Part shown: piece after piece, positions 4,983-17,140 of the stretch | How the letters are laid out: each line of letters begins with the position of its first letter | How positions within the stretch are numbered: position 1 is the stretch's first letter | Assembly (NCBI GenBank): GCA_031292525.1 | Contig: JARLGY010000010.1 | Location: 90,806-154,805 of the forward strand | Reading direction: 5' to 3' | Length of the DNA: 64,000 nt | DNA from: Flavipsychrobacter sp. | Lineage (GTDB): Bacteria > Bacteroidota > Bacteroidia > Chitinophagales > Chitinophagaceae | Notes under the pieces: model-generated | Told to the model about the DNA's origin: nothing | The model's database searches: none | What the model saw: the letters and a program-made list of their open reading frames with translations, nothing else | Program-made: the position numbers and the translations under genes

Positions 4983-5024
4983 AAAAATGCTCATGTCGTG
5001 ATAGGTTCGATAGTCAAAAAGGAT

Positions 5025-5071
5025 GACCCATTTTGACTCGAACCAACCAGCACTGAAAATCAATGCATTGC
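5025..5071 (-). repeat. Decayed tRNA-like fragment (T-arm-like GGTTCGAGTC), left copy
   Basis: The minus strand reads ...GCATTGATTTTCAGTGCTGGTTGGTTCGAGTCAAAATGGGTC. No complete cloverleaf can be folded. It is paralogous to 10678-10724. Confidence 0.45.
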
Positions 5072-5090
5072 AACTTCAAACAACGAGGCT

Positions 5091-5136
5091 AAAATAGTAA
5101 AACCCGCTCTGAGAGCGGGTTTTACCTTACATGTTA
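5091..5136. repeat. Left copy of a 46-nt direct repeat (orphan copy of the tRNA-Gln terminator flank)
   Basis: It is 44/46 identical to 10743-10788. Both mismatches lie at the apex of the hairpin aaacccgctc/gagcgggttt (5100-5122). Confidence 0.85.
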
Positions 5137-5187
5137 ACCCATCTGTATTTTTTTCGAACCAATTTGTAGGAGATTTGAAGAAAATCG
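5136..5187. repeat. Copy 1 of a roughly 50-nt repeat family (AACCCATCTG-ATTTTTTTCGAACC-TTTGTAGGAGATTTGAAGAAAATCG)
   Basis: It aligns by eye with 5853-5903 and 5919-5972. Positionally it corresponds to a decayed 3' part of tRNA-Gln. Confidence 0.7.
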
Positions 5188-5260
5188 GCCTTTCGATTAT
5201 CTAACATTCGTATATTTATTTATTCGTATGACATACAAATAAAATACCGTGCAAAGTAAT

Positions 5261-5818
5261 ATGGGCTTTTCGCTTGAAAATATAGAGGAATTTAAAATTC
5301 CATTAGACGACTACATATCGAAATGGATATTCACGGATGAAAACGAGCAATTGGCGAGTAAAGAACATCAAGACCAAATCTTTCCATTAACAAAAGAAGC
5401 TGCAAATTTTCTTTGGGATCATGAAGTAAAAATCGGCATCATATGTTCAGAGAAGTTTTTTAAAAATATTTCGGCGTTTGATGGTGGATCATCTGGTCAA
5501 CAGACAATTAAGAAATACTTGTACAATTTAGGTATTCCGTTTAGCCAAAAGGTTTTTATAGCGCAGCAGCCCGATACCGCTTTTGTGCTTACCTGGAAAA
5601 TGGTGATCAAATACTCACACAATCTTTTTTTCGCTCATGACCAAATAGTTTGGGACAGAACATTGAATTGGCAACTAGAATTTCACCACGACGGGCTTTT
5701 TACCTTTGGACGAGACTTTATTTACGACGGACAATCTGAGATGCAAAAAAATAAAGAAAAAACACAAATAGCATTGAAAGAAATGGCTGAACGAAAAAAC
5801 CGACACGGTTTCGACTAA
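5261..5818 (+). CDS. Hypothetical protein (185 aa from the ATG; the ORF track starts at GTG 5249)
   Basis: It is the only long ORF in this segment. It is flanked by repeat copies 1 and 2. No motif was recognised. Confidence 0.55.
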   Translation: MGFSLENIEEFKIPLDDYISKWIFTDENEQLASKEHQDQIFPLTKEAANFLWDHEVKIGIICSEKFFKNISAFDGGSSGQQTIKKYLYNLGIPFSQKVFIAQQPDTAFVLTWKMVIKYSHNLFFAHDQIVWDRTLNWQLEFHHDGLFTFGRDFIYDGQSEMQKNKEKTQIALKEMAERKNRHGFD

Positions 5819-5827
5819 ATAAAAAAA

Positions 5828-5844
5828 GCCCCGCAATGCGGGGC
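5828..5844. terminator. GC-rich hairpin gccccgc-aat-gcggggc
   Basis: The 7-bp GC stem has an A7 tract on its plus-strand 5' side, which reads as a U-tract on the minus strand. It lies 10 nt after the stop codon of 5261-5818. Confidence 0.55.
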
Positions 5845-5852
5845 TGAAAGTT

Positions 5853-5903
5853 AACCCATCTGGATTTTTTTCGAACCGGTTTGTGGAGGATTTGAAAAAA
5901 TTG
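5853..5903. repeat. Copy 2 of the roughly 50-nt repeat family
   Basis: aacccatctggatttttttcgaaccggtttgtggaggatttgaaaaaattg. Confidence 0.7.
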
Positions 5904-5918
5904 TCAGCATGATATGAT

Positions 5919-5972
5919 GACCCGGATTGCATTTTTTTTCGAACCGGTTTGTAGAAGATTTGAAGAAAATCG
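5919..5972. repeat. Copy 3 of the roughly 50-nt repeat family
   Basis: gacccggattgcattttttttcgaaccggtttgtagaagatttgaagaaaatcg. Confidence 0.65.
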
Positions 5973-6157
5973 TCGTCTATTATATGTAAAGATATAGTCT
6001 CATTTGGTCGGGAGAACGTGTCAAATTTCGAACTTATTTATGAACCTCATGCAATTCAACATATCATTACATCAGTAGGCCTAACCATGCATAACTTGAC
6101 ATCACTCGATACAACCGAGCACAATACCAAATGAGGTTGACAGGACAACTTTCAAAC

Positions 6158-7636
6158 TCATAATTTGCTTTTGATACTTTGCATATCATTCTTAAATTGC
6201 ATAAGTTTATTATCATCTATTGCAATATCAGGGTAATAGGTTTTAATAAATTCCAGTGCAGAAACTCTACCTGATAATATCAGAAATTTCTTTTTGTCAG
6301 AGGTTAATTTGAAATCTGTTGTCTTTATTGGAGTGGTATCGATTTTTACAATCTTATCGAGATTTCTATCTACAAAGTCCATTTCTTCCCCGTCAACAGA
6401 CAAATTAAATAGCTCATTGAGGACAGACCAGCTTCTCTTGGTCGTCGATTTTAGATAGAGGCCAATGAACGGTTTCTCTGGATTGTCTTCAATAAAGCGT
6501 TTTAATGGGAAATTATTTCGTAATCCACCATCGTAAACTTTTATCCCGTCTTCTTTTTTGCAAGTGAAGTAAATTGGAATTGACATGGAGCACCTCGCAG
6601 CATATGCAGCATGTGCTGTTTTCCGATCTCCATGAGACTCAAATTTTATTGTCCCGTCCTTTACTCTGCTTGCATATAAAGTTATCTCAACCGGAATATC
6701 TGCTAAAACGACTTCATTTTCTTTTTTTATTTTCTTTTTGATTAACTGGCTAATCCAACTTTCTATTTCGTTCCCTGGATATAAGCCACCTTTTGAAAAA
6801 AGGTTAGCAAGCATCTGTAAAACACCTGCGTCTTTAAAATCATTGAAGTTTTTGCTACTCAATTCAATAAGTAACTCAGCAGGTGTATATCCAGCTCCTA
6901 ATAGAACAGCAGCAATTGCACCAGCATATGCGGTAAAAGAAAAATGCTGCTCTAATTCAAGTAGTGCCCCAGCAAAAGCCAAGCCTTTCACCCCACCTCC
7001 TTTCAAAATAATTGCGTACGAATGTTGGTTACTAACAACCAAAAGTAATTTGTTAATAGCTTCATTTATACCAATAGTCAGCCTGGGTTGCAGTTTGGCA
7101 CGACAACTATCACAAATGTGGCCCGAAGCCAACGATAAAAGTAATTCATATTTTTTCTCTTTGAAATGGAAAATGCAATCTTTATTTTCCTTTTCATTGT
7201 GTGATTTTAATTCGGGCTGTAGAAAACTCAGCGCATATCTTACCAAATAGTAACGGCAGTATCTAACTCTATCGTTTACAAATTGATTGAAGTTGTACGT
7301 CGTAAATACAGCAAATTCACCATTTTCGGACCTTGTTCCAAATATATCCTCCCATCTGTTCGATGATAAATAACCATTAACAATTAGTATTATGAATGGT
7401 CGATGGCCCTTTGCCTCCGCTTTATACTCTATAAGCCATTTAAAAACATCGTTTGAAACGTATTTCTCTCTCTTATAAGGGTACAGTTTTTCCCTGAGGT
7501 CATGTTCAGCTAGGCTAAAATGGAATTCGGTTTGCACTTTATTGAGCGATTCGCAAGCTGCGCTCACACTTTTAATCAAATCAAGGCTGATTGTTAATAT
7601 TTCTATTGGATAAGGCATCGTGTCTTTAAGTAACAA
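6158..7636 (-). CDS. Two-domain protein: unassigned N-terminal domain of about 205 aa fused to a patatin-like phospholipase fold with no GxSxG serine
   Basis: Three patatin blocks are present: GGGVKG (oxyanion), ARCSMSIPIYF and YDGGLRNNFP (Asp of the dyad). The nucleophile-elbow position reads FTAYAGA instead of GTSAGA. Position 7636 is a TTG, so ATG 7618 (MPYPIE) is the more likely start. Confidence 0.75.
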   Translation of the reverse strand: MLLKDTMPYPIEILTISLDLIKSVSAACESLNKVQTEFHFSLAEHDLREKLYPYKREKYVSNDVFKWLIEYKAEAKGHRPFIILIVNGYLSSNRWEDIFGTRSENGEFAVFTTYNFNQFVNDRVRYCRYYLVRYALSFLQPELKSHNEKENKDCIFHFKEKKYELLLSLASGHICDSCRAKLQPRLTIGINEAINKLLLVVSNQHSYAIILKGGGVKGLAFAGALLELEQHFSFTAYAGAIAAVLLGAGYTPAELLIELSSKNFNDFKDAGVLQMLANLFSKGGLYPGNEIESWISQLIKKKIKKENEVVLADIPVEITLYASRVKDGTIKFESHGDRKTAHAAYAARCSMSIPIYFTCKKEDGIKVYDGGLRNNFPLKRFIEDNPEKPFIGLYLKSTTKRSWSVLNELFNLSVDGEEMDFVDRNLDKIVKIDTTPIKTTDFKLTSDKKKFLILSGRVSALEFIKTYYPDIAIDDNKLMQFKNDMQSIKSKL

Positions 7637-8009
7637 TTAATGTTGGATCTTCGTCGTAAAGCATTTCACCGGTCTGACCGCTTTCTACCTTCACTCCATA
7701 TTTAAAATGACCTTTTTTTTCTGCCTCGTCTTCTGCAATTCGAACAATTGTCTTCTCATTTTCCTGAAGGATAAAAGGAATATCTAACACTTGCACAAAC
7801 TTCCGTTTCCAACTAAAAGGTGAACTCCTATCAAAATATACTGTAAAAATCAAGCCTATCGGCGAATAGTGCGGGCGGATTCTTTTTTAAAAATCGATAA
7901 TATTCCATTGGATGATTGAGTGCAGTGGAACGACAATTTCGTTTGGGATCCGCAAAAGTTTTTCGGGTTGTCCTGTGAGTTCGATATCTATTTTTATTAT
8001 CTCGGCCAT
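7626..8009 (-). pseudogene. 127-codon reading frame interrupted by one in-frame TAA (7887-7889). It is either a nonsense-disrupted gene or two small ORFs (40 aa plus about 75 aa).
   Basis: My own translation: ATG 8009 MAEIIKIDIELTGQPEKLLRIPNEIVVPLHSIIQWNIIDF, then TAA, then KRIRPHYSPIGLIFTVYFDR... in the same frame. The stop lies in a T5A6 tract. Confidence 0.5.
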
Positions 8010-8065
8010 TGCACTTATTTTACGATAAACATACTAAGAGAATATTTTTTAGTAACAATTGTACT

Positions 8066-8947
8066 TTAATCCTCGTCAAACAACTTTTTACGATTTGCTT
8101 CAAACTCTGCCATAATTGTAAAGTTGATGTCTTTGGCGATGCCTTCAATGTCTGGGAATATCGAATAATGAGTTATTCCTTTTTCCTCTCTTAATTCGTG
8201 AAATATTTCTTTCCGGCAAGCATTTGGAATAAATATTTTATGAAGTGATTTATCAATTGGCCAATATTCTTCCAAAGATTTAACCCAAAAACCGAAATAG
8301 ACAAAAACACCTTTTTGCGCATGTATTCTTACATTGTTATTGTCTGTTTTGACGGCGAATGGAAAGTCTACATTGGATAATGTGTCGAAGTTATACTCGT
8401 TGAGGTCTACAATTTCCGCTCTGTTTATAAAATGAATATTTTCATTTATTTTCTTTGGATTAATACAATAAATAGCGGCACCGTTTTCTGACCAGCCCCC
8501 ATTCATAATGAAATCACGAATGTCTATGGTTACAGAATCCGCAGATAGCTGACCATTATTTTTTTCAGAGACGGCAAAATACGCAGCGACTAGAGGTTCT
8601 TTACTAAAATCCAACAAACGAGTTAATATCCCATAATGTTGCATGAGATATAAATAGTCAATTTCATTAAAGCCGGCACAATTACATAACTTACTATACT
8701 GCTCTTTAAACGAACTTAATACACCTATATCGTTGGGTAAGATTACTTTTCCTTCAGTAATTCGGAAGTTTCTTATTTTATCAGATATGTTGTGCTTTGG
8801 TAACACAATCTTTTGCCTAAATAGGGTTGGTTCTAATTGATACATCGCGCTCGTGTGGCCCCTATACCAAACAGCACCTTCGATATTCTCGATTTCTTTA
8901 ATAATTTCAAAGAGCTCGTTTAAACTTGTAGCAGTATATAGTGTCAT
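8066..8947 (-). CDS. FRG-domain protein
   Basis: WYRGH is the FRG-motif equivalent, and MQHYGILTRLLDFSKEPLVAAYFA matches the conserved QHyGlpTrLLDwt..p.vAlyFA block of the Pfam FRG family as I recall it. Confidence 0.72.
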   Translation of the reverse strand: MTLYTATSLNELFEIIKEIENIEGAVWYRGHTSAMYQLEPTLFRQKIVLPKHNISDKIRNFRITEGKVILPNDIGVLSSFKEQYSKLCNCAGFNEIDYLYLMQHYGILTRLLDFSKEPLVAAYFAVSEKNNGQLSADSVTIDIRDFIMNGGWSENGAAIYCINPKKINENIHFINRAEIVDLNEYNFDTLSNVDFPFAVKTDNNNVRIHAQKGVFVYFGFWVKSLEEYWPIDKSLHKIFIPNACRKEIFHELREEKGITHYSIFPDIEGIAKDINFTIMAEFEANRKKLFDED

Positions 8948-8991
8948 TGCGCTTTTGTTTAATTACAGGAACCAAACTGAAAACAAGCCTC

Positions 8992-9477
8992 CTAAACCCT
9001 CGTTTCATCGTTTTCGACATCATCTTCAATGCTAGTCAATTTTTTCGCAATCGAAAGCAGTGTGGTTATTAGAATGTAGAACGTTATAGCAAAAACAATC
9101 GCGATTGTAGTCTGGACGGATGTTGCGAAATTTGAGTCTTTATTTAACCATGGATAATCTTTTCCAAATTGTTTAACAGATTCAACATAGCCATACTTGA
9201 TCCCAGCTTGGAGTAAAAAGCCAATAGACGCTAATAACAGCCTTTCCCCCTGCTTTGCCGCAAACTCCTCTGTGCGCTTAACAGACCTACTCCAGTTGAA
9301 AGTGACACTCCCAAGACCAGCAATAATTGCCGCGCCATAACTTGTCAGAGTACTATAAGTACTATTATCGAGATCGGCGAATGTTTTAATGAAGACATTT
9401 ATGCATAAAAGTGCGAAGATGATGAATGGCACGTAGAGAAATAAAAGTTTCGCAAGAATCTTAAACGTTTTCATCAT
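8992..9477 (-). CDS. Hypothetical membrane protein, about four TM helices, acidic C-terminal tail
   Basis: Four hydrophobic segments are visible: LLFLYVPFIIFALLCINVF, YGAAIIAGLGSVTF, LLLASIGFLLQAGI and TIAIVFAITFYILITTLLSI. It is 12 nt downstream of the preceding gene. Confidence 0.65.
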   Translation of the reverse strand: MMKTFKILAKLLFLYVPFIIFALLCINVFIKTFADLDNSTYSTLTSYGAAIIAGLGSVTFNWSRSVKRTEEFAAKQGERLLLASIGFLLQAGIKYGYVESVKQFGKDYPWLNKDSNFATSVQTTIAIVFAITFYILITTLLSIAKKLTSIEDDVENDETRV

Positions 9478-9489
9478 GGGAATTCTGGA

Positions 9490-10155
9490 TTATTGTTTCC
9501 GACTTCTTTTGGGTTTTCCTAGTTTCAGCAATTCTGCTTGTACGTAAGAATTGTTTTCGACAATGTTCTCCGCAACCTTTCCCTCTTTTGTACTTGCAAT
9601 CTGAGCGGTAATTACGGTATTACCCTCCATGTTTTCTTCTGAAATAAATCTTTCAATAAAAAATCTGTTTCCTAAAGCTTTGTTCTCAAATTGCGGGAGA
9701 ATATGATTGAGCAAAATTTGATTTCTTTCTGAGAGATGTTTTATCAGATAAGAATTTACAATTTCGGCATCTGCTTCCGAAATTTTTTGTTTTCGCCCCT
9801 TAGTAAATTCTTCCACAACACTGCTAACAATGAAGCCAAGCGTGAGGATGCTAGTAGCGGCTATTACACCTACAAGTAAGAGACTCCCTTTTTCAATTTT
9901 ATCTATATAGAAATTTGTTGTTTCCGAAAATCTTGAATACAGTTTATCCTGAATAGATTGCTTCTCTCTGTACTTTAGATTAATCTTTAAGAGCAGAAAT
10001 TCAATTTCTGCTCTTAAAATATCGTTAGTGATCTTCGAATATTCTCTTATCAACTGTCTAAAAGTTCCATCTGAAATATTTTCTAGTTCAGCATGATAAA
10101 ATCGGATATACAAATCTGGAATTCCAGGACTATCTTTCGATTTGTGTTTTGCCAT
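9490..10155 (-). CDS. Hypothetical single-pass membrane protein (221 aa) with helical, charged flanks
   Basis: There is one central hydrophobic segment (LLLVGVIAATSILTLGFIVSSVV). It is the first gene of the co-directional cassette. Confidence 0.6.
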   Translation of the reverse strand: MAKHKSKDSPGIPDLYIRFYHAELENISDGTFRQLIREYSKITNDILRAEIEFLLLKINLKYREKQSIQDKLYSRFSETTNFYIDKIEKGSLLLVGVIAATSILTLGFIVSSVVEEFTKGRKQKISEADAEIVNSYLIKHLSERNQILLNHILPQFENKALGNRFFIERFISEENMEGNTVITAQIASTKEGKVAENIVENNSYVQAELLKLGKPKRSRKQ

Positions 10156-10677
10156 GGTGATTTATTAAGATGAGAGTGCAGCTATTGCTACTCTTGGGCT
10201 ACTTAAGCGCAGTCACCAGTGGAGTATTTCTACTTAACGAGCTTTGGGTCACTCTATTACGGCAGATAGCCTCACTCTCATCGTAGGTAGTATTAATATA
10301 ACGACTCTTAAGCGTATTTTTTACAAAATAAGCTGTTTCAGTTAGAAAATATACTACATCTAAAAATAAATTTAGGGCTCCTGTAATTAGGCAGCCTATA
10401 GAACTAATCGAAGTAACTAAGTGCTTTTCGGAGTCTGATAATTTTTGCAGCTTCGAATAATGTGATTAAAGGATGAGACCATTTGACTTTGATGGGTATT
10501 GAATTGGTTGCGAGCCGAGATTATTAGTGGAACTGTTTTAAAAGAAATTTGAGCCACATTAAACTCAATTACCCCTCTTTTCTTCGTTTGTAACGAGGAT
10601 GCAACCACAACCGTTTGTAACGACAATATAATAAGAGGCAATTTCAACCCTTTTGAAAAGGACTCTTTATTTTTAGT

Positions 10678-10724
10678 GACCGAATTGGACTCGAACCGAG
10701 AATAGTTGAAAATGAATTGGTTAC
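10678..10724 (-). repeat. Decayed tRNA-like fragment, right copy
   Basis: The minus strand reads ...CCAATTCATTTTCAACTATTCTCGGTTCGAGTCCAATTCGGTC. The T-stem is not complementary and there is no D-arm. Confidence 0.45.
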
Positions 10725-10742
10725 AAATAAACCAAAAATTAG

Positions 10743-10788
10743 AAAATAGTAAAACCCGCTTTCAGAGCGGGTTTTACCTTACATGTTA
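10743..10788. repeat. Right copy of the 46-nt direct repeat, which is the intrinsic terminator flank of tRNA-Gln
   Basis: Hairpin aaacccgct/agcgggttt (10752-10774) is followed on the minus strand by TTTTACTATTTT, immediately 3' of the tRNA. Confidence 0.85.
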
Positions 10789-10856
10789 TCCGACCTGGAC
10801 TCGAACCAAGACAAACAGAACCAGAATCTGTTGTGCTACCATTACACAATCGGACA
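10786..10856 (-). tRNA. tRNA-Gln (anticodon CUG), 71 nt, no encoded CCA
   Basis: Hand-folded cloverleaf. Acceptor stem TGTCCGA/TCGGATA (U1-A72). D stem GTGT/GCAC. Anticodon stem ACAGA/TCTGT with loop TTCTGGT. T arm CTTGG-TTCGAGT-CCAGG. Confidence 0.9.
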
Positions 10857-10876
10857 GTGTTCCTTTTAACGGAGAG

Positions 10877-10884
10877 CAAAGATA
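10877..10884 (-). promoter_or_regulatory. -7 box TATCTTTG for tRNA-Gln
   Basis: The minus strand reads cattatctttgctctccgttaaaaggaacac, followed by the tRNA 5' end. The motif fits TAnnTTTG. Confidence 0.5.
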
Positions 10885-11025
10885 ATGCATTATCTCATTT
10901 TTCGAAAAAAGTCTTGCACTTTTTTTCAGAAGACGATATTAAAACAGAAAATAGTATCTAGGGAATACTCGCTATTTTTGCTGCTCACAATCCAACTTTT
11001 TTTGAGTACAGACGATAAATTCCTG

Positions 11026-11955
11026 ATGTTTGAGAACCGCCTGCGCAAGGTGTACAAACACTACAGCAAGCTAGCGCGCAACCAGGATGTGGCGTGCTTC
11101 CGTTTTTACGATCACGACCTGCCCGAATTTCCTTTTGCTATAGAATGGTACAATGGCGCAGTGCATGCTGCTGAATACAAGCGCAAACATGGCATGGAGG
11201 ATGATGCACACGATGCATGGCTGCTACAATGCCGCCAGATACTAGCCGATGTGTTGCAGATATTGCCAGATGTGATATTTATGAAGGAACGCATGCGCAA
11301 AGCAGGGCGGCAAGGCCAATATGAGAAGTTTGATGAGCGGAAAGAAGAGCGCATTGTACCAGAGGGTGGCCAGAGCTTTATCATCAACCTTACAGATTAC
11401 CTGGATACCGGGCTATTCCTGGATCACCGTATTACTCGCGGCATGGTGCGCGATGAGGCTAAAGGCAAACATGTACTCAACCTATTCTGCTACACGGGGT
11501 CGTTTAGCGTGTACGCTGCAGCCGGTGGCGCAGCAACTGTTACGTCAGTAGATATATCAAAAACCTACCTCAACTGGGCTAAGCGAAACATGCAGTATAA
11601 TAAGCTGTACAAAGATACCCAGCACGATTTTATACATACAGATGTATTGGATTTTATAAACGACATACCAGCCAATACTTACGATCTTATTATTTGCGAT
11701 CCGCCCACATTCTCGAACAGTAAGCGAATGGAGGGCGACTTTGACGTACAAAGGGATCATGTAGCATTATTAAAAAAACTGTTAAAAGCATCGACAGAAA
11801 CAGGCAAAATATACTTCAGCAATAACTACCGAAATTTTGTGCTCGACAAAGATGCAATACCCGTTTTCAACATAAAAGACATAACCAAAGCCACTACCCC
11901 ATTCGATTTTCAGGGTAAACTGAACCGTTCTTGTTTTCTGCTGGATAAATTGTAA
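11026..11955 (+). CDS. Class I SAM-dependent RNA methyltransferase (RlmK/RlmL C-terminal-like)
   Basis: Contains DHDLPEFPF, a VLNLFCYTGSFSV SAM-binding loop and a DPPTFS catalytic motif. The start is moved to ATG 11026 because the 10885 extension overlaps the tRNA-Gln promoter. Confidence 0.75.
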   Translation: MFENRLRKVYKHYSKLARNQDVACFRFYDHDLPEFPFAIEWYNGAVHAAEYKRKHGMEDDAHDAWLLQCRQILADVLQILPDVIFMKERMRKAGRQGQYEKFDERKEERIVPEGGQSFIINLTDYLDTGLFLDHRITRGMVRDEAKGKHVLNLFCYTGSFSVYAAAGGAATVTSVDISKTYLNWAKRNMQYNKLYKDTQHDFIHTDVLDFINDIPANTYDLIICDPPTFSNSKRMEGDFDVQRDHVALLKKLLKASTETGKIYFSNNYRNFVLDKDAIPVFNIKDITKATTPFDFQGKLNRSCFLLDKL

Positions 11956-15829: not shown

Positions 15830-17140
15830 CTATAGCCCGTTAAAAAAAGCCTCTGTTACCGATACTGTCTTCTCAATATCTTTTGTACTTAATGCATGGC
15901 TAATAAACCAGCTTTCGTATGCTGAAGGTGGCAGGTATATTCCGTTATCCAGCATAAAGTGAAAGTATTTATTAAACAAAGCATTATCTGCATGTGCAGC
16001 ACAATCGAAGTTGGTAACTGGTACCTTACTAAAATGCACGCTGATCATTGACCCCAGTCGGTTAATTACATATTGCACTCCAGTCTTTTGCAGCACCGCA
16101 TCAAGACCATTGTGCAACAAGGCCGTCTTCTCTTCCAGCTGTGTATAGATAGACGGATTGTTTTTCAAGGTTTTGAGCATTGTGTACCCGGCTATCATAG
16201 CTATAGGATTGCCACTTAATGTACCGGCCTGGTAAACATTACCCAACGGGGCAATGTGCTGCATGATCTCTTTTTTACCACCAAAAGCACCAACAGGCAT
16301 GCCACCGCCAATCACTTTGCCATAGGTAACCAAATCAGCATGTATGTTGAGTCTTTCCTGGGCACCACCGGCAGCCAGGCGAAAACCAGTCATTACCTCA
16401 TCAAAAATATACACTATACCTTCCTGGTCGCATATTTTGCGCAACCCTTCCAGGAAACCAGGCAATGGCAATATACACCCCATATTACCGCATACCGGCT
16501 CTATGATGATAGCCGCTATTTCACCTTTATTTTCCTTCACCAATTTCTCAACAGCTTCAAGGTCATTGTAAGGTGCGGTCAGCGTATCAGCCGAAACACC
16601 AGCTGTTATGCCAGGCACTGTTTGTATATTGAACGTAGCTACCCCACTACCTGCCTTCACTAAAAAAGCATCTGCATGGCCGTGGTAACATCCTTCAAAC
16701 TTTATAAACTTATTGCGGCCGGTATAGCCACGGGCCAATCTTAAAGCACTCATACAAGCTTCTGTACCACTGCTTACCATACGCACCAGATCTACATTTG
16801 GCGCCATGCTTTTTATAAGCTCGGCCATCTCCACTTCAAGCTCTGTTGGTGCACCAAACGATGTAGAATATTCAACACGTTCTTTTATAGCATTGATAAC
16901 AGGCTCGTAGGCATGGCCAAGTATCATTGGGCCCCACGAGTTAATGTAATCTATATATTGGTTACCATCAGCATCGTACATGTATGCACCTTTTGCTTTC
17001 TCCATAAAAAGAGGAGTACCGCCTACACTTTTAAAGGCGCGCACAGGAGAGTTCACACCACCGGGAATAGATAGTTTTGCGCGTTCGAAAAGTTGTTTGC
17101 TTTTATCTGTAGTTGTTGGATTAGCTATTGTACCAGGCAT
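15830..17140 (-). CDS. hemL: Glutamate-1-semialdehyde 2,1-aminomutase
   Basis: Contains [12 protein letters not shown] and class III aminotransferase blocks. Confidence 0.93.

Follow-up and report, generated by a model that had tools for sequence, protein, structure and literature searches.

In the window analysed here (64,000 nt of a Flavipsychrobacter sp. genome, C52:90806-154805), an AT-rich 5.6-kb islet of accessory genes (5137-10742) abuts an intact tRNA-Gln(CTG) gene. We consider it fairly probable that this islet arose by serial insertion and accretion, at the 3' end of tRNA-Gln(CTG), of non-autonomous units resembling the cis-mobilizable elements (CIMEs) of streptococci. It would form the youngest, tRNA-proximal end of an array built one by one from at least six modules. 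The modules are separated by copies of a ∼55-nt junction element, here termed D1, and one such copy also marks a precise occupied/empty pair at a second tRNA gene of the same genome, tRNA-Gln(TTG). The genome as a whole comprises 4.44 Mb in 75 contigs, with 42.0% G+C; it encodes a type IX secretion sorting domain and is in this respect Bacteroidota-like.

The tRNA-Gln(CTG) gene (ARAGORN; Rfam tRNA model, 54 bits) bounds one end of the islet, and a 46-nt direct repeat brackets it. The initial annotation of the window had put the identity of the two repeat copies (5091-5136 and 10743-10788) at 44/46, and whole-genome BLAST recovers this pair at E = 1e-14. The two mismatches, at 5109 and 5111, do lie at the apex of a hairpin, within the loop of a 29-nt palindrome (GTAAAACCCGCT...AGCGGGTTTTAC) that acts as a terminator on the minus strand. 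The description of the repeat as duplicated terminator flank is accurate, since it takes in only the final 3–4 bases of the tRNA and is otherwise trailer and terminator; a longer form extends over 55 nt at 91% identity (5091-5145 against 10743-10797). A second duplicated tRNA-like fragment, which we call frag2, is likewise present (70% identity, 5024-5073 against 10677-10726). It has homologous blocks in the two congeners compared, which are G002, a metagenome-assembled genome (MAG) with two copies, and G001, a 93%-complete assembly. The segment 5137-5187 had been taken for a copy of the tRNA body. It is no such copy: apart from its acceptor- and T-stem-like bases and the motif TCGAACC, it is a distinct repeat found elsewhere; this ‘T-arm-like segment’ is a member of a junction-element family, D1, spread over the class. 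Its tRNA-like bases (5137-5153) match tRNA-Gln at only ∼7/11 positions and form a D1 variant common to other copies.

Near-identical AAAACCCGC...GCGGGTTTT terminator hairpins serve several tRNA genes of this genome, namely Arg-TCT, Leu-CAG and both Gln genes (C61:279053-279089, C61:339833-339860, C14:206945-206975 and window positions 5097-5125 and 10749-10777). Likeness of such hairpins, taken by itself, therefore says little about common origin.

The composition of the islet sets it apart. Counts made by hand in two 60-nt lines were exact (17/60 G+C at 6241-6300 and 25/60 at 16021-16080), and the low value holds for 5137-10742 as a whole, with 35.8% G+C against 42.0% for the genome (sd 2.2, z = -2.8); 0.98% of 4205 genome windows of matching length are equally low. 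G+C at third codon positions (GC3) is 0.28-0.41 in the islet genes and 0.42-0.50 in flanking genes. As the initial annotation had it, no integrase is found among the seven open reading frames (ORFs) of the islet, by Pfam, NCBIfam, PHROGs and PADLOC scans. A genome-wide search with PF00589 had no match in this contig region, and a tblastn search of the array with the six integrases of the genome gave nothing significant (best E = 0.095).

D1 arm copies were found by whole-genome BLAST and with an nhmmer model. Read on the + strand, the element consists of a GC-rich hairpin that makes a good minus-strand terminator; 11–20 nt resembling the 3' strands of a tRNA acceptor stem and T stem; ∼6 variable nt (a T-run in this genus, CAAWTN elsewhere); and a conserved arm of 32–35 nt, TCGAACCnnTTTGTnGAnGATTTGAAGAAAAT. 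The stretch just right of the left 46-nt repeat, 5133-5183, recurs at 5850-5900 and 5918-5968 (Table 1), and three further D1 copies lie upstream of the window (C52:75997, C52:87817 and C52:89122). The genome has seven strong arm copies, all antisense to the tRNA: six within the 25.7 kb 3' of tRNA-Gln(CTG), and one on contig C14, 3.1 kb 3' of tRNA-Gln(TTG). A weaker copy lies 2.2 kb behind tRNA-Leu(CAG).

On C52, the six copies split the 25.7 kb 3' of tRNA-Gln(CTG) into modules; listed towards the tRNA, they hold (1) a 2430-aa protein of the type IX secretion system (T9SS) kind and a histidine kinase (HK)/LytTR pair; (2) a GH18 gene; (3) an OmpR-type response regulator, a histidine kinase, an OprB porin and mgtA; (4) a DUF2947-like gene; (5) a remnant of a few bases; and (6) a five-gene patatin/FRG cassette. 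The islet is three accreted units rather than a single insertion, with internal junctions at 5828-5912 and 5918-5989. The hairpin at the first of these (5828-5844) is of another terminator type, and together with its adjacent D1 it is 90% identical to a unit upstream of the window (C52:89071-89150). Junction elements are present at both ends of each module and a recombinase in none; att function of these sites is putative. Several D1 copies have in common a derived, non-tRNA variant, GTTAACCCATCTGGA. The junctions are nested remnants from more than one tRNA type.

A T-arm-like fragment, GCGGGAATCGAACCCGTA, closest to tRNA-Glu, stands left of the hairpins of several D1 copies, in a position analogous to that of frag2 (G002 segment L024, 9163-9200 and 11700-11740; own segment L001, 16930-16990).

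Other identities for D1 were tried and rejected. It is not a hidden tRNA: ARAGORN finds none, and partner strands for the acceptor and T stems are lacking. An integron, or a cluster of attC sites lacking integron integrase (CALIN), does not fit either, the hairpins being ordinary GC-rich terminators of differing sequence and the conserved part an unpaired arm, with genes on both strands and modules of up to 11 kb. Nor is it a dispersed repeat of the miniature inverted-repeat transposable element (MITE) or repetitive extragenic palindrome (REP) type, as all 7/7 strong copies lie 3' of two tRNA-Gln genes in one orientation. Matches in Rfam at E <= 1 were limited to the tRNA and chance terminator-like ones, single-sequence folds agree on the terminator alone, and a literature search with the arm sequence returned only unrelated primer matches.

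Evidence for insertion comes from tRNA-Gln(TTG), where an occupied and an empty site can be compared. Our contig C14 carries, in this order, GAPDH, a hairpin, D1, two orphan genes of 427 aa each, a terminator of a different kind, tRNA-Gln(TTG) and PBP2. In G002 the flanks are contiguous and 90% identical to ours, reading GAPDH-hairpin-ATTAAGTAGTCCCGACTGGATTCGAACC-PBP2, where ATTAAGTAGTCCCGACTGGATTCGAACC is the 3' end of tRNA-Gln(TTG) on the + strand. Our left junction is hairpin-ATTAAGTAG|ACTTAACTGGA-CCGTTA-arm and our right junction is new terminator-ATTCAGTAG|TCCCGACTGGA (tRNA), also written ATTCAGTAG|TCCCGACTGGATTCGAACC; identity common to both is limited to ATT(A/C)AGTAG. This alignment shows that the islet entered precisely at the last bases of the tRNA. 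The same comparison supports the view that the tRNA-like 11 nt, the 6-nt spacer, the arm and the terminator now serving the tRNA are all element DNA. That origin for the tRNA-like stretch accounts for the recurrence of the GTTAACCCATCTGGA variant in several D1 copies.

This 3.1-kb islet occupies 8972-11682 of the segment C14:195000-212000; its two 427-aa ORFs have no Pfam match, and its neighbours GAPDH and PBP2 are core genes.

At tRNA-Gln(CTG) itself, comparison with relatives shows a variable locus. Among 30 relatives, only G002 has the methyltransferase gene beside tRNA-Gln(CTG); relatives outside the genus carry a methyltransferase orthologue with no adjacent tRNA, and tRNA-Gln(CTG) was not found in the 93%-complete G001 assembly, where it may be lost or unassembled. 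The same genes do not recur at the locus in all relatives: G002, the sole relative with the locus, carries others there. Synteny with G002, at 91–93% nucleotide identity, runs through cyclophilin-M20-D1, HK/LytTR-D1 and GH18 to the last common D1. Homology is lost from that point to the tRNA, and is back at our 10686, in the block just downstream of the tRNA. Our genes in the gap are the response regulator and histidine kinase, porin, mgtA and the islet; those of G002 are dehydrogenases, a cupin, two AraC regulators and an aldo-keto reductase. The two genomes therefore have distal modules and D1 copies in common, while their proximal modules are species-specific. The variable region exceeds the islet, the mgtA/porin/two-component module being also absent from the G002 locus. 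The initial reading of an immobilised insertion or hotspot at tRNA-Gln with no recombinase of its own holds, the G002 cargo being different and the G+C content deviant. The empty site that it suggested looking for, with mgtA directly adjacent to tRNA-Gln, is absent from the available relatives; mgtA of G002 is on another contig, in a different downstream context.

G002 also has an internal block (frag2, hairpin, tRNA-like bases and arm; C16:22927-23073) 3.7 kb from its tRNA, which gives it a bracketed islet of its own around other cargo. The tRNA-adjacent blocks of the two genomes are 68.5% identical, no closer than other block pairs (55–76%), although identity is 100% in the tRNA and averages 91% from the block on through the methyltransferase gene. 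It follows that the tRNA-adjacent block belongs to the inserted DNA and travels with the cargo. Rather than a local duplication, the best reading of the 46-nt pair is that each copy forms the tRNA-proximal end of its own inserted unit, the two units being related.

Three observations on these arrays may be added. Between two D1 copies common with G002 our genome has the 2430-aa T9SS-tailed protein (46–53% G+C, C52:76531-83823), and the same position in G002 (segment L024, 2742-5156) has an 804-aa ORF, making this another variable module. The Y_Y_Y/His_kinase sensor and LytTR pair (C52:83940-87684) is as low in G+C as the islet (33–36%), yet is 92% identical in G002. In G001, C35:17790-18050 is a block of frag2, hairpin, D1 and D1', with the same hairpin loop as window positions 5097-5125.

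Under the accretion reading, the distal end of each unit would be a degenerate tRNA-3'-end-like stretch, ∼6 nt and the 32–35-nt arm, and its proximal end would supply the tRNA with a new trailer and terminator. Each newcomer would displace the older terminator block from the tRNA and set it beside its own arm, yielding the composite scar of hairpin, tRNA-like stretch and arm. The copy at 5091-5136 would then have come in with the mgtA module as its terminator and trailer, and 10743-10788 with the related patatin/FRG module; the interval would hold three units, of which one has a single gene, one is almost wholly deleted and one has five genes. Because no recombinase is aboard, the units would be non-autonomous, either decayed or mobilised in trans, their recombinase supplied from elsewhere or lost. 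Repeats, array, deviant composition, cargo that differs between species and the occupied/empty pair at tRNA-Gln(TTG) are all observed; the part played by a site-specific recombinase, the order of events and the route of transfer are inferred.

Several points weigh against accretion by site-specific insertion. No recombinase was found in the ∼20 islets examined, which include the -6/+9 kb around 12 arms and our own array, so the catalyst is hypothetical. Integrase-bearing classical islands, in this genome and (one) in another genome, G277, have ordinary tRNA repeats of 23–46 nt and lack the arm. The position of the junction varies, some copies appearing joined at the last bases of the tRNA and others (the G002 left block and our copy at 75.9k) being tRNA-identical as far as the T loop; site-specific recombination explains this no better than homologous exchange or subsequent gene conversion would. 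Several modules have housekeeping-looking genes of normal G+C (mgtA, two-component systems). Finally, there is no empty site at tRNA-Gln(CTG) in the two available congeners, one of which is without the locus.

Some of these points could be met by homologous recombination alone, in which the tRNA, the terminator block and D1 serve as anchors and DNA of relatives replaces or adds to what lies between, while unequal exchange or gene conversion among the repeats makes the duplicated block and keeps parts of it near-identical. The apparent crossover points do differ among copies; our two blocks are 44/46 identical in terminator and trailer and ∼65% identical elsewhere, a mosaic typical of gene conversion; a single derived variant recurs among D1 copies; and a recombinase is found in none of the islets examined. 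Nevertheless we think it unlikely as the sole process. The ATT(A/C)AGTAG common to the tRNA-Gln(TTG) junctions is too little for RecA-type exchange, the arm is conserved beside remnants of different tRNAs in different families with no flanking homology, and the cargos of G002 and our genome have no common sequence that could be a second anchor. Since the apparent crossover points vary and the 44/46 identity is confined to terminator and trailer, homologous exchange and gene conversion have probably acted on top of insertion and accretion.

The arm itself has a codon-like pattern, and this bears on a second alternative, that D1 is functional in its own right (as a gene for a short peptide, as a small RNA, or as a module for regulation or termination at tRNA-adjacent genes) with the islets incidental. 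In one + strand frame, column entropy by codon position is 0.50/0.35/0.92 over 35 distinct copies, although this periodicity is partly circular, being inflated by a search pattern that left four variable positions free (N). The frame reads (Q)(F/M)SNxF(V/I/L)(E/D)(D/N)L(K/R/E)K(I/L), and changes are synonymous or conservative (TTG/CTG/TTA, GAG/GAA/GAT, GTG/ATT), the conservative ones falling within SNxF(V/I)(E/D)DLKK(I/L). Five copies have ATG directly before the arm, and a good minus-strand terminator stands beside every copy. We nevertheless hold this alternative to be improbable. Most copies lack a start codon; the frames are short, at 13–37 codons, and stay open for 5–105 codons upstream (mostly <40) and 11–36 downstream, apart from an outlier of 62 that is perhaps not a true copy; and conservation stops after ∼16 codons. 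No consistent RNA fold extends beyond the terminator, no Rfam family matches, and copies are confined to the 3' side of tRNAs, at the edges of variable DNA.

Searches for a gene to which the arm might belong were negative. No long ORF runs through the arm in any of ∼45 copies, no intact motif-bearing ORF exists in our genome, and no gene body stands beside the tRNA in any islet examined. Pfam found nothing in ten stub peptides, a codon-degenerate scan of viral contigs gave 0 matches, and blastn of plasmids and phages gave chance matches only. A word-index protein search with the padded motif returned nothing at E <= 10, a search in which a 13-residue motif cannot reach significance.

A third alternative, ancient local tandem duplication of tRNA-Gln and its flank with decay of one copy and native AT-rich genes between, is very improbable: although the ∼160-nt duplicated segment includes flank outside the tRNA, unlike classical att repeats, the left copy has the D1 arm instead of a tRNA body, at another tRNA this arm accompanies an insertion that can be demonstrated, the cargo is missing from the congeners and deviant in composition, and the parallel bracket in G002 surrounds different genes.

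Across the family, the arm pattern (up to 3 mismatches allowed) occurs in 13/301 genomes, representing 11 of 151 genera, and the reversed control gave 0 matches. A codon-degenerate pattern added 4 genomes from 3 other families among 400 genomes of the class, and exact-pattern scans added a Flavobacterium isolate, a MAG from a lake and several contigs from metagenomes. The layout of hairpin, tRNA-like bases, spacer and arm is constant across copies. If there is a tRNA gene inside 10 kb, its side and strand are those expected, and the tRNA-like bases are similar to its sequence. These bases match tRNA-Lys at 13/13 nt beside an islet of 9.4 kb and resemble tRNA-Leu(CAA) in part at islets of 1 kb and 5 kb; at an islet of 1.3 kb they were not scored against its tRNA-Arg(ACG). 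Cargo differs from case to case and is unrelated. On these matches, the stacked recombinase-free pattern also appears at low frequency in the class sampled.

Within this sample of 301 family and 400 class genomes, together with the metagenome, viral, plasmid and phage scans, no arm-bearing element has an integrase. A possible link in G277, an integrase island at tRNA-Ser, was rejected: the island carries separate 23-nt repeats, with the arm 8.8 kb further out. Our genome has classical islands at tRNA-Ala, Leu, Arg, Met and Pro, with 24–63-nt repeats that include tRNA sequence and, in some, an integrase beside the tRNA.

Elsewhere, at C65:129306-130014, a tRNA-Leu(TAA)/tRNA-Gly(GCC) pair is tandemly duplicated with a 478-nt period. 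The duplication adjoins a gene for a 407-aa integrase (PF00589 at C65:127918-128337) and two integrase fragments (C65:126521-127217), and with a 24-nt tRNA-Leu repeat 39 kb away it looks like a classical island.

We put forward only tentatively, and regard as rather unlikely, the broader proposal that the D1 arm marks a family, so far undescribed, of non-autonomous integrative islets, found at low frequency over the class sampled, that enter at the last bases of tRNAs, bring their own terminator and are moved by a recombinase encoded elsewhere, or self-destroyed or lost on integration. Behind tRNAs, such islets would pile up accessory and defence genes in stacks free of any recombinase. If moreover the recombinase gene were lost on integration, the codon-like arm would be a fossil gene end, a bacterial counterpart of the archaeal ‘suicidal’ SSV-type. 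Phage Mx8, with its intP/attP, is a similar case to SSV. In the archaeal type, the integrase gene spans attP and is split on integration (PMC7253208, PMC8371274). A split gene would leave a short coding stub beside a tRNA remnant, as the arm looks; here, however, no gene body is found beside the tRNA, and joining the ends of the tRNA-Gln(TTG) islet gives a frame of 42 codons only. We would treat the resemblance as a lead, not as membership.

Other known systems resemble parts of the pattern. The tRNA-integrated genomic islands catalogued by Islander (PMC4383910) likewise target the 3' end of a tRNA gene and regenerate it; their far end is marked by a displaced tRNA fragment, to which the tRNA-like bases at 5137-5153 may correspond; their cargo is accessory and compositionally deviant, and occupied/empty comparison gives precise ends. 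The islets described here differ in having no integrase inside and in end identity that is mostly trailer and terminator rather than 20–45 nt of tRNA, whereas the classical islands of the same genome show the usual pattern without the arm. CIMEs, known among the integrative conjugative and integrative mobilizable elements (ICEs and IMEs) of streptococci, are integrase-less units that keep att sites and accrete in tandem (PMC5704250, citing Pavlovic 2004 and Bellanger 2011). The likeness lies in the att-like flanks, the lack of integration and transfer genes, and stacking in tandem at a target gene's end, where the newest unit adjoins the intact target. For CIMEs, however, a related autonomous ICE with matching integrase is known, while here none was found in ∼700 genomes, and lineage and site sequence also differ. 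IMEX elements and pdif modules are recombinase-less, have short repeated sites (dif-like XerC/D sites) and are presumed to rely for movement on an enzyme from another locus. They too are modules bounded by repeated short sites, but D1 has no clear dif-type dyad and targets tRNA ends.

Insertion hotspots at tRNA genes are usually spotted by an integrase, so that islets without a recombinase pass for debris. In the present case they are defined, over many genera, by a short conserved junction sequence, and an occupied/empty pair maps their ends to the base. The arm gives a sequence handle with which to find islets in the class, seek the missing enzyme and delimit cargo. The place of the mgtA/porin/two-component module in a variable stack matters for the annotation of core versus accessory genes.

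Table 1. Features of the islet and its ends, in window coordinates
Feature	Position	Strand	Remarks
frag2, left	5024-5073		tRNA-3'-end-like, closest to tRNA-Arg(TCT), then arm-like tail; in proximal end block of older mgtA module
46-nt repeat, left	5091-5136		displaced terminator hairpin 5097-5125 (acts on minus strand) and trailer ACCTTACATGTTA
D1 copy 1	5133-5204	+	tRNA-Gln-3'-end-like GTTAACCCATCTGTA, T-run, arm from 5154 (TCGAACCAATTTGTAGGAGATTTGAAGAAAAT); short frame SNQFVGDLKKIGLSII ends at 5204; nhmmer E = 1e-6
DUF2947-like ORF, 189 aa	5249-5818	+	weak Pfam match, E = 8.6e-7; 36% G+C; GC3 0.36; sole gene of small module running from D1 copy 1 to copy 2
Terminator hairpin GCCCCGCAATGCGGGGC	5828-5844	-	U-run; proximal end of small module
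D1 copy 2	5850-5912	+	arm from 5871; frame SNRFVEDLKKLSA then stop; nhmmer E = 4e-8
D1 copy 3	5918-5989	+	tRNA-like part resembles tRNA-Arg(TCT); arm from 5939; distal end of five-gene module; nhmmer E = 2.6e-8
Patatin-like phospholipase, 492 aa	6158-7636	-	extra N-terminal region; PF01734, E = 5.5e-19; weak PADLOC/CBASS-lipase-type matches
Small ORF upstream of patatin gene	7626-8009 (called piece 7626-7853)	-	no family match
FRG-domain protein, 293 aa	8066-8947	-	PF08867, E = 5e-20; PADLOC candidate defence family PDC-S15, E = 5.5e-42
ORF, 161 aa	8992-9477	-	no family match
ORF, 221 aa	9490-10155	-	no family match
frag2, right	10677-10726		within proximal end block of newest module
46-nt repeat, right	10743-10788		working tRNA-Gln terminator (hairpin 10749-10777) and trailer
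tRNA-Gln(CTG)	10785-10856	-	putative insertion target; 72/72 identical in G002

The FRG-domain protein is found in neither congener, and its homologues in 3/300 family genomes are just 28–33% identical. An additional minus-strand ORF of 76 aa in the islet is doubtful. The N-terminal extension of the patatin-like protein, ∼200 aa, has a weak archaemetzincin-type match (NF033823, E = 9.5e-5, residues 19-125). Together, the patatin-like lipase and the FRG/PDC-S15 protein may form a candidate defence cassette.

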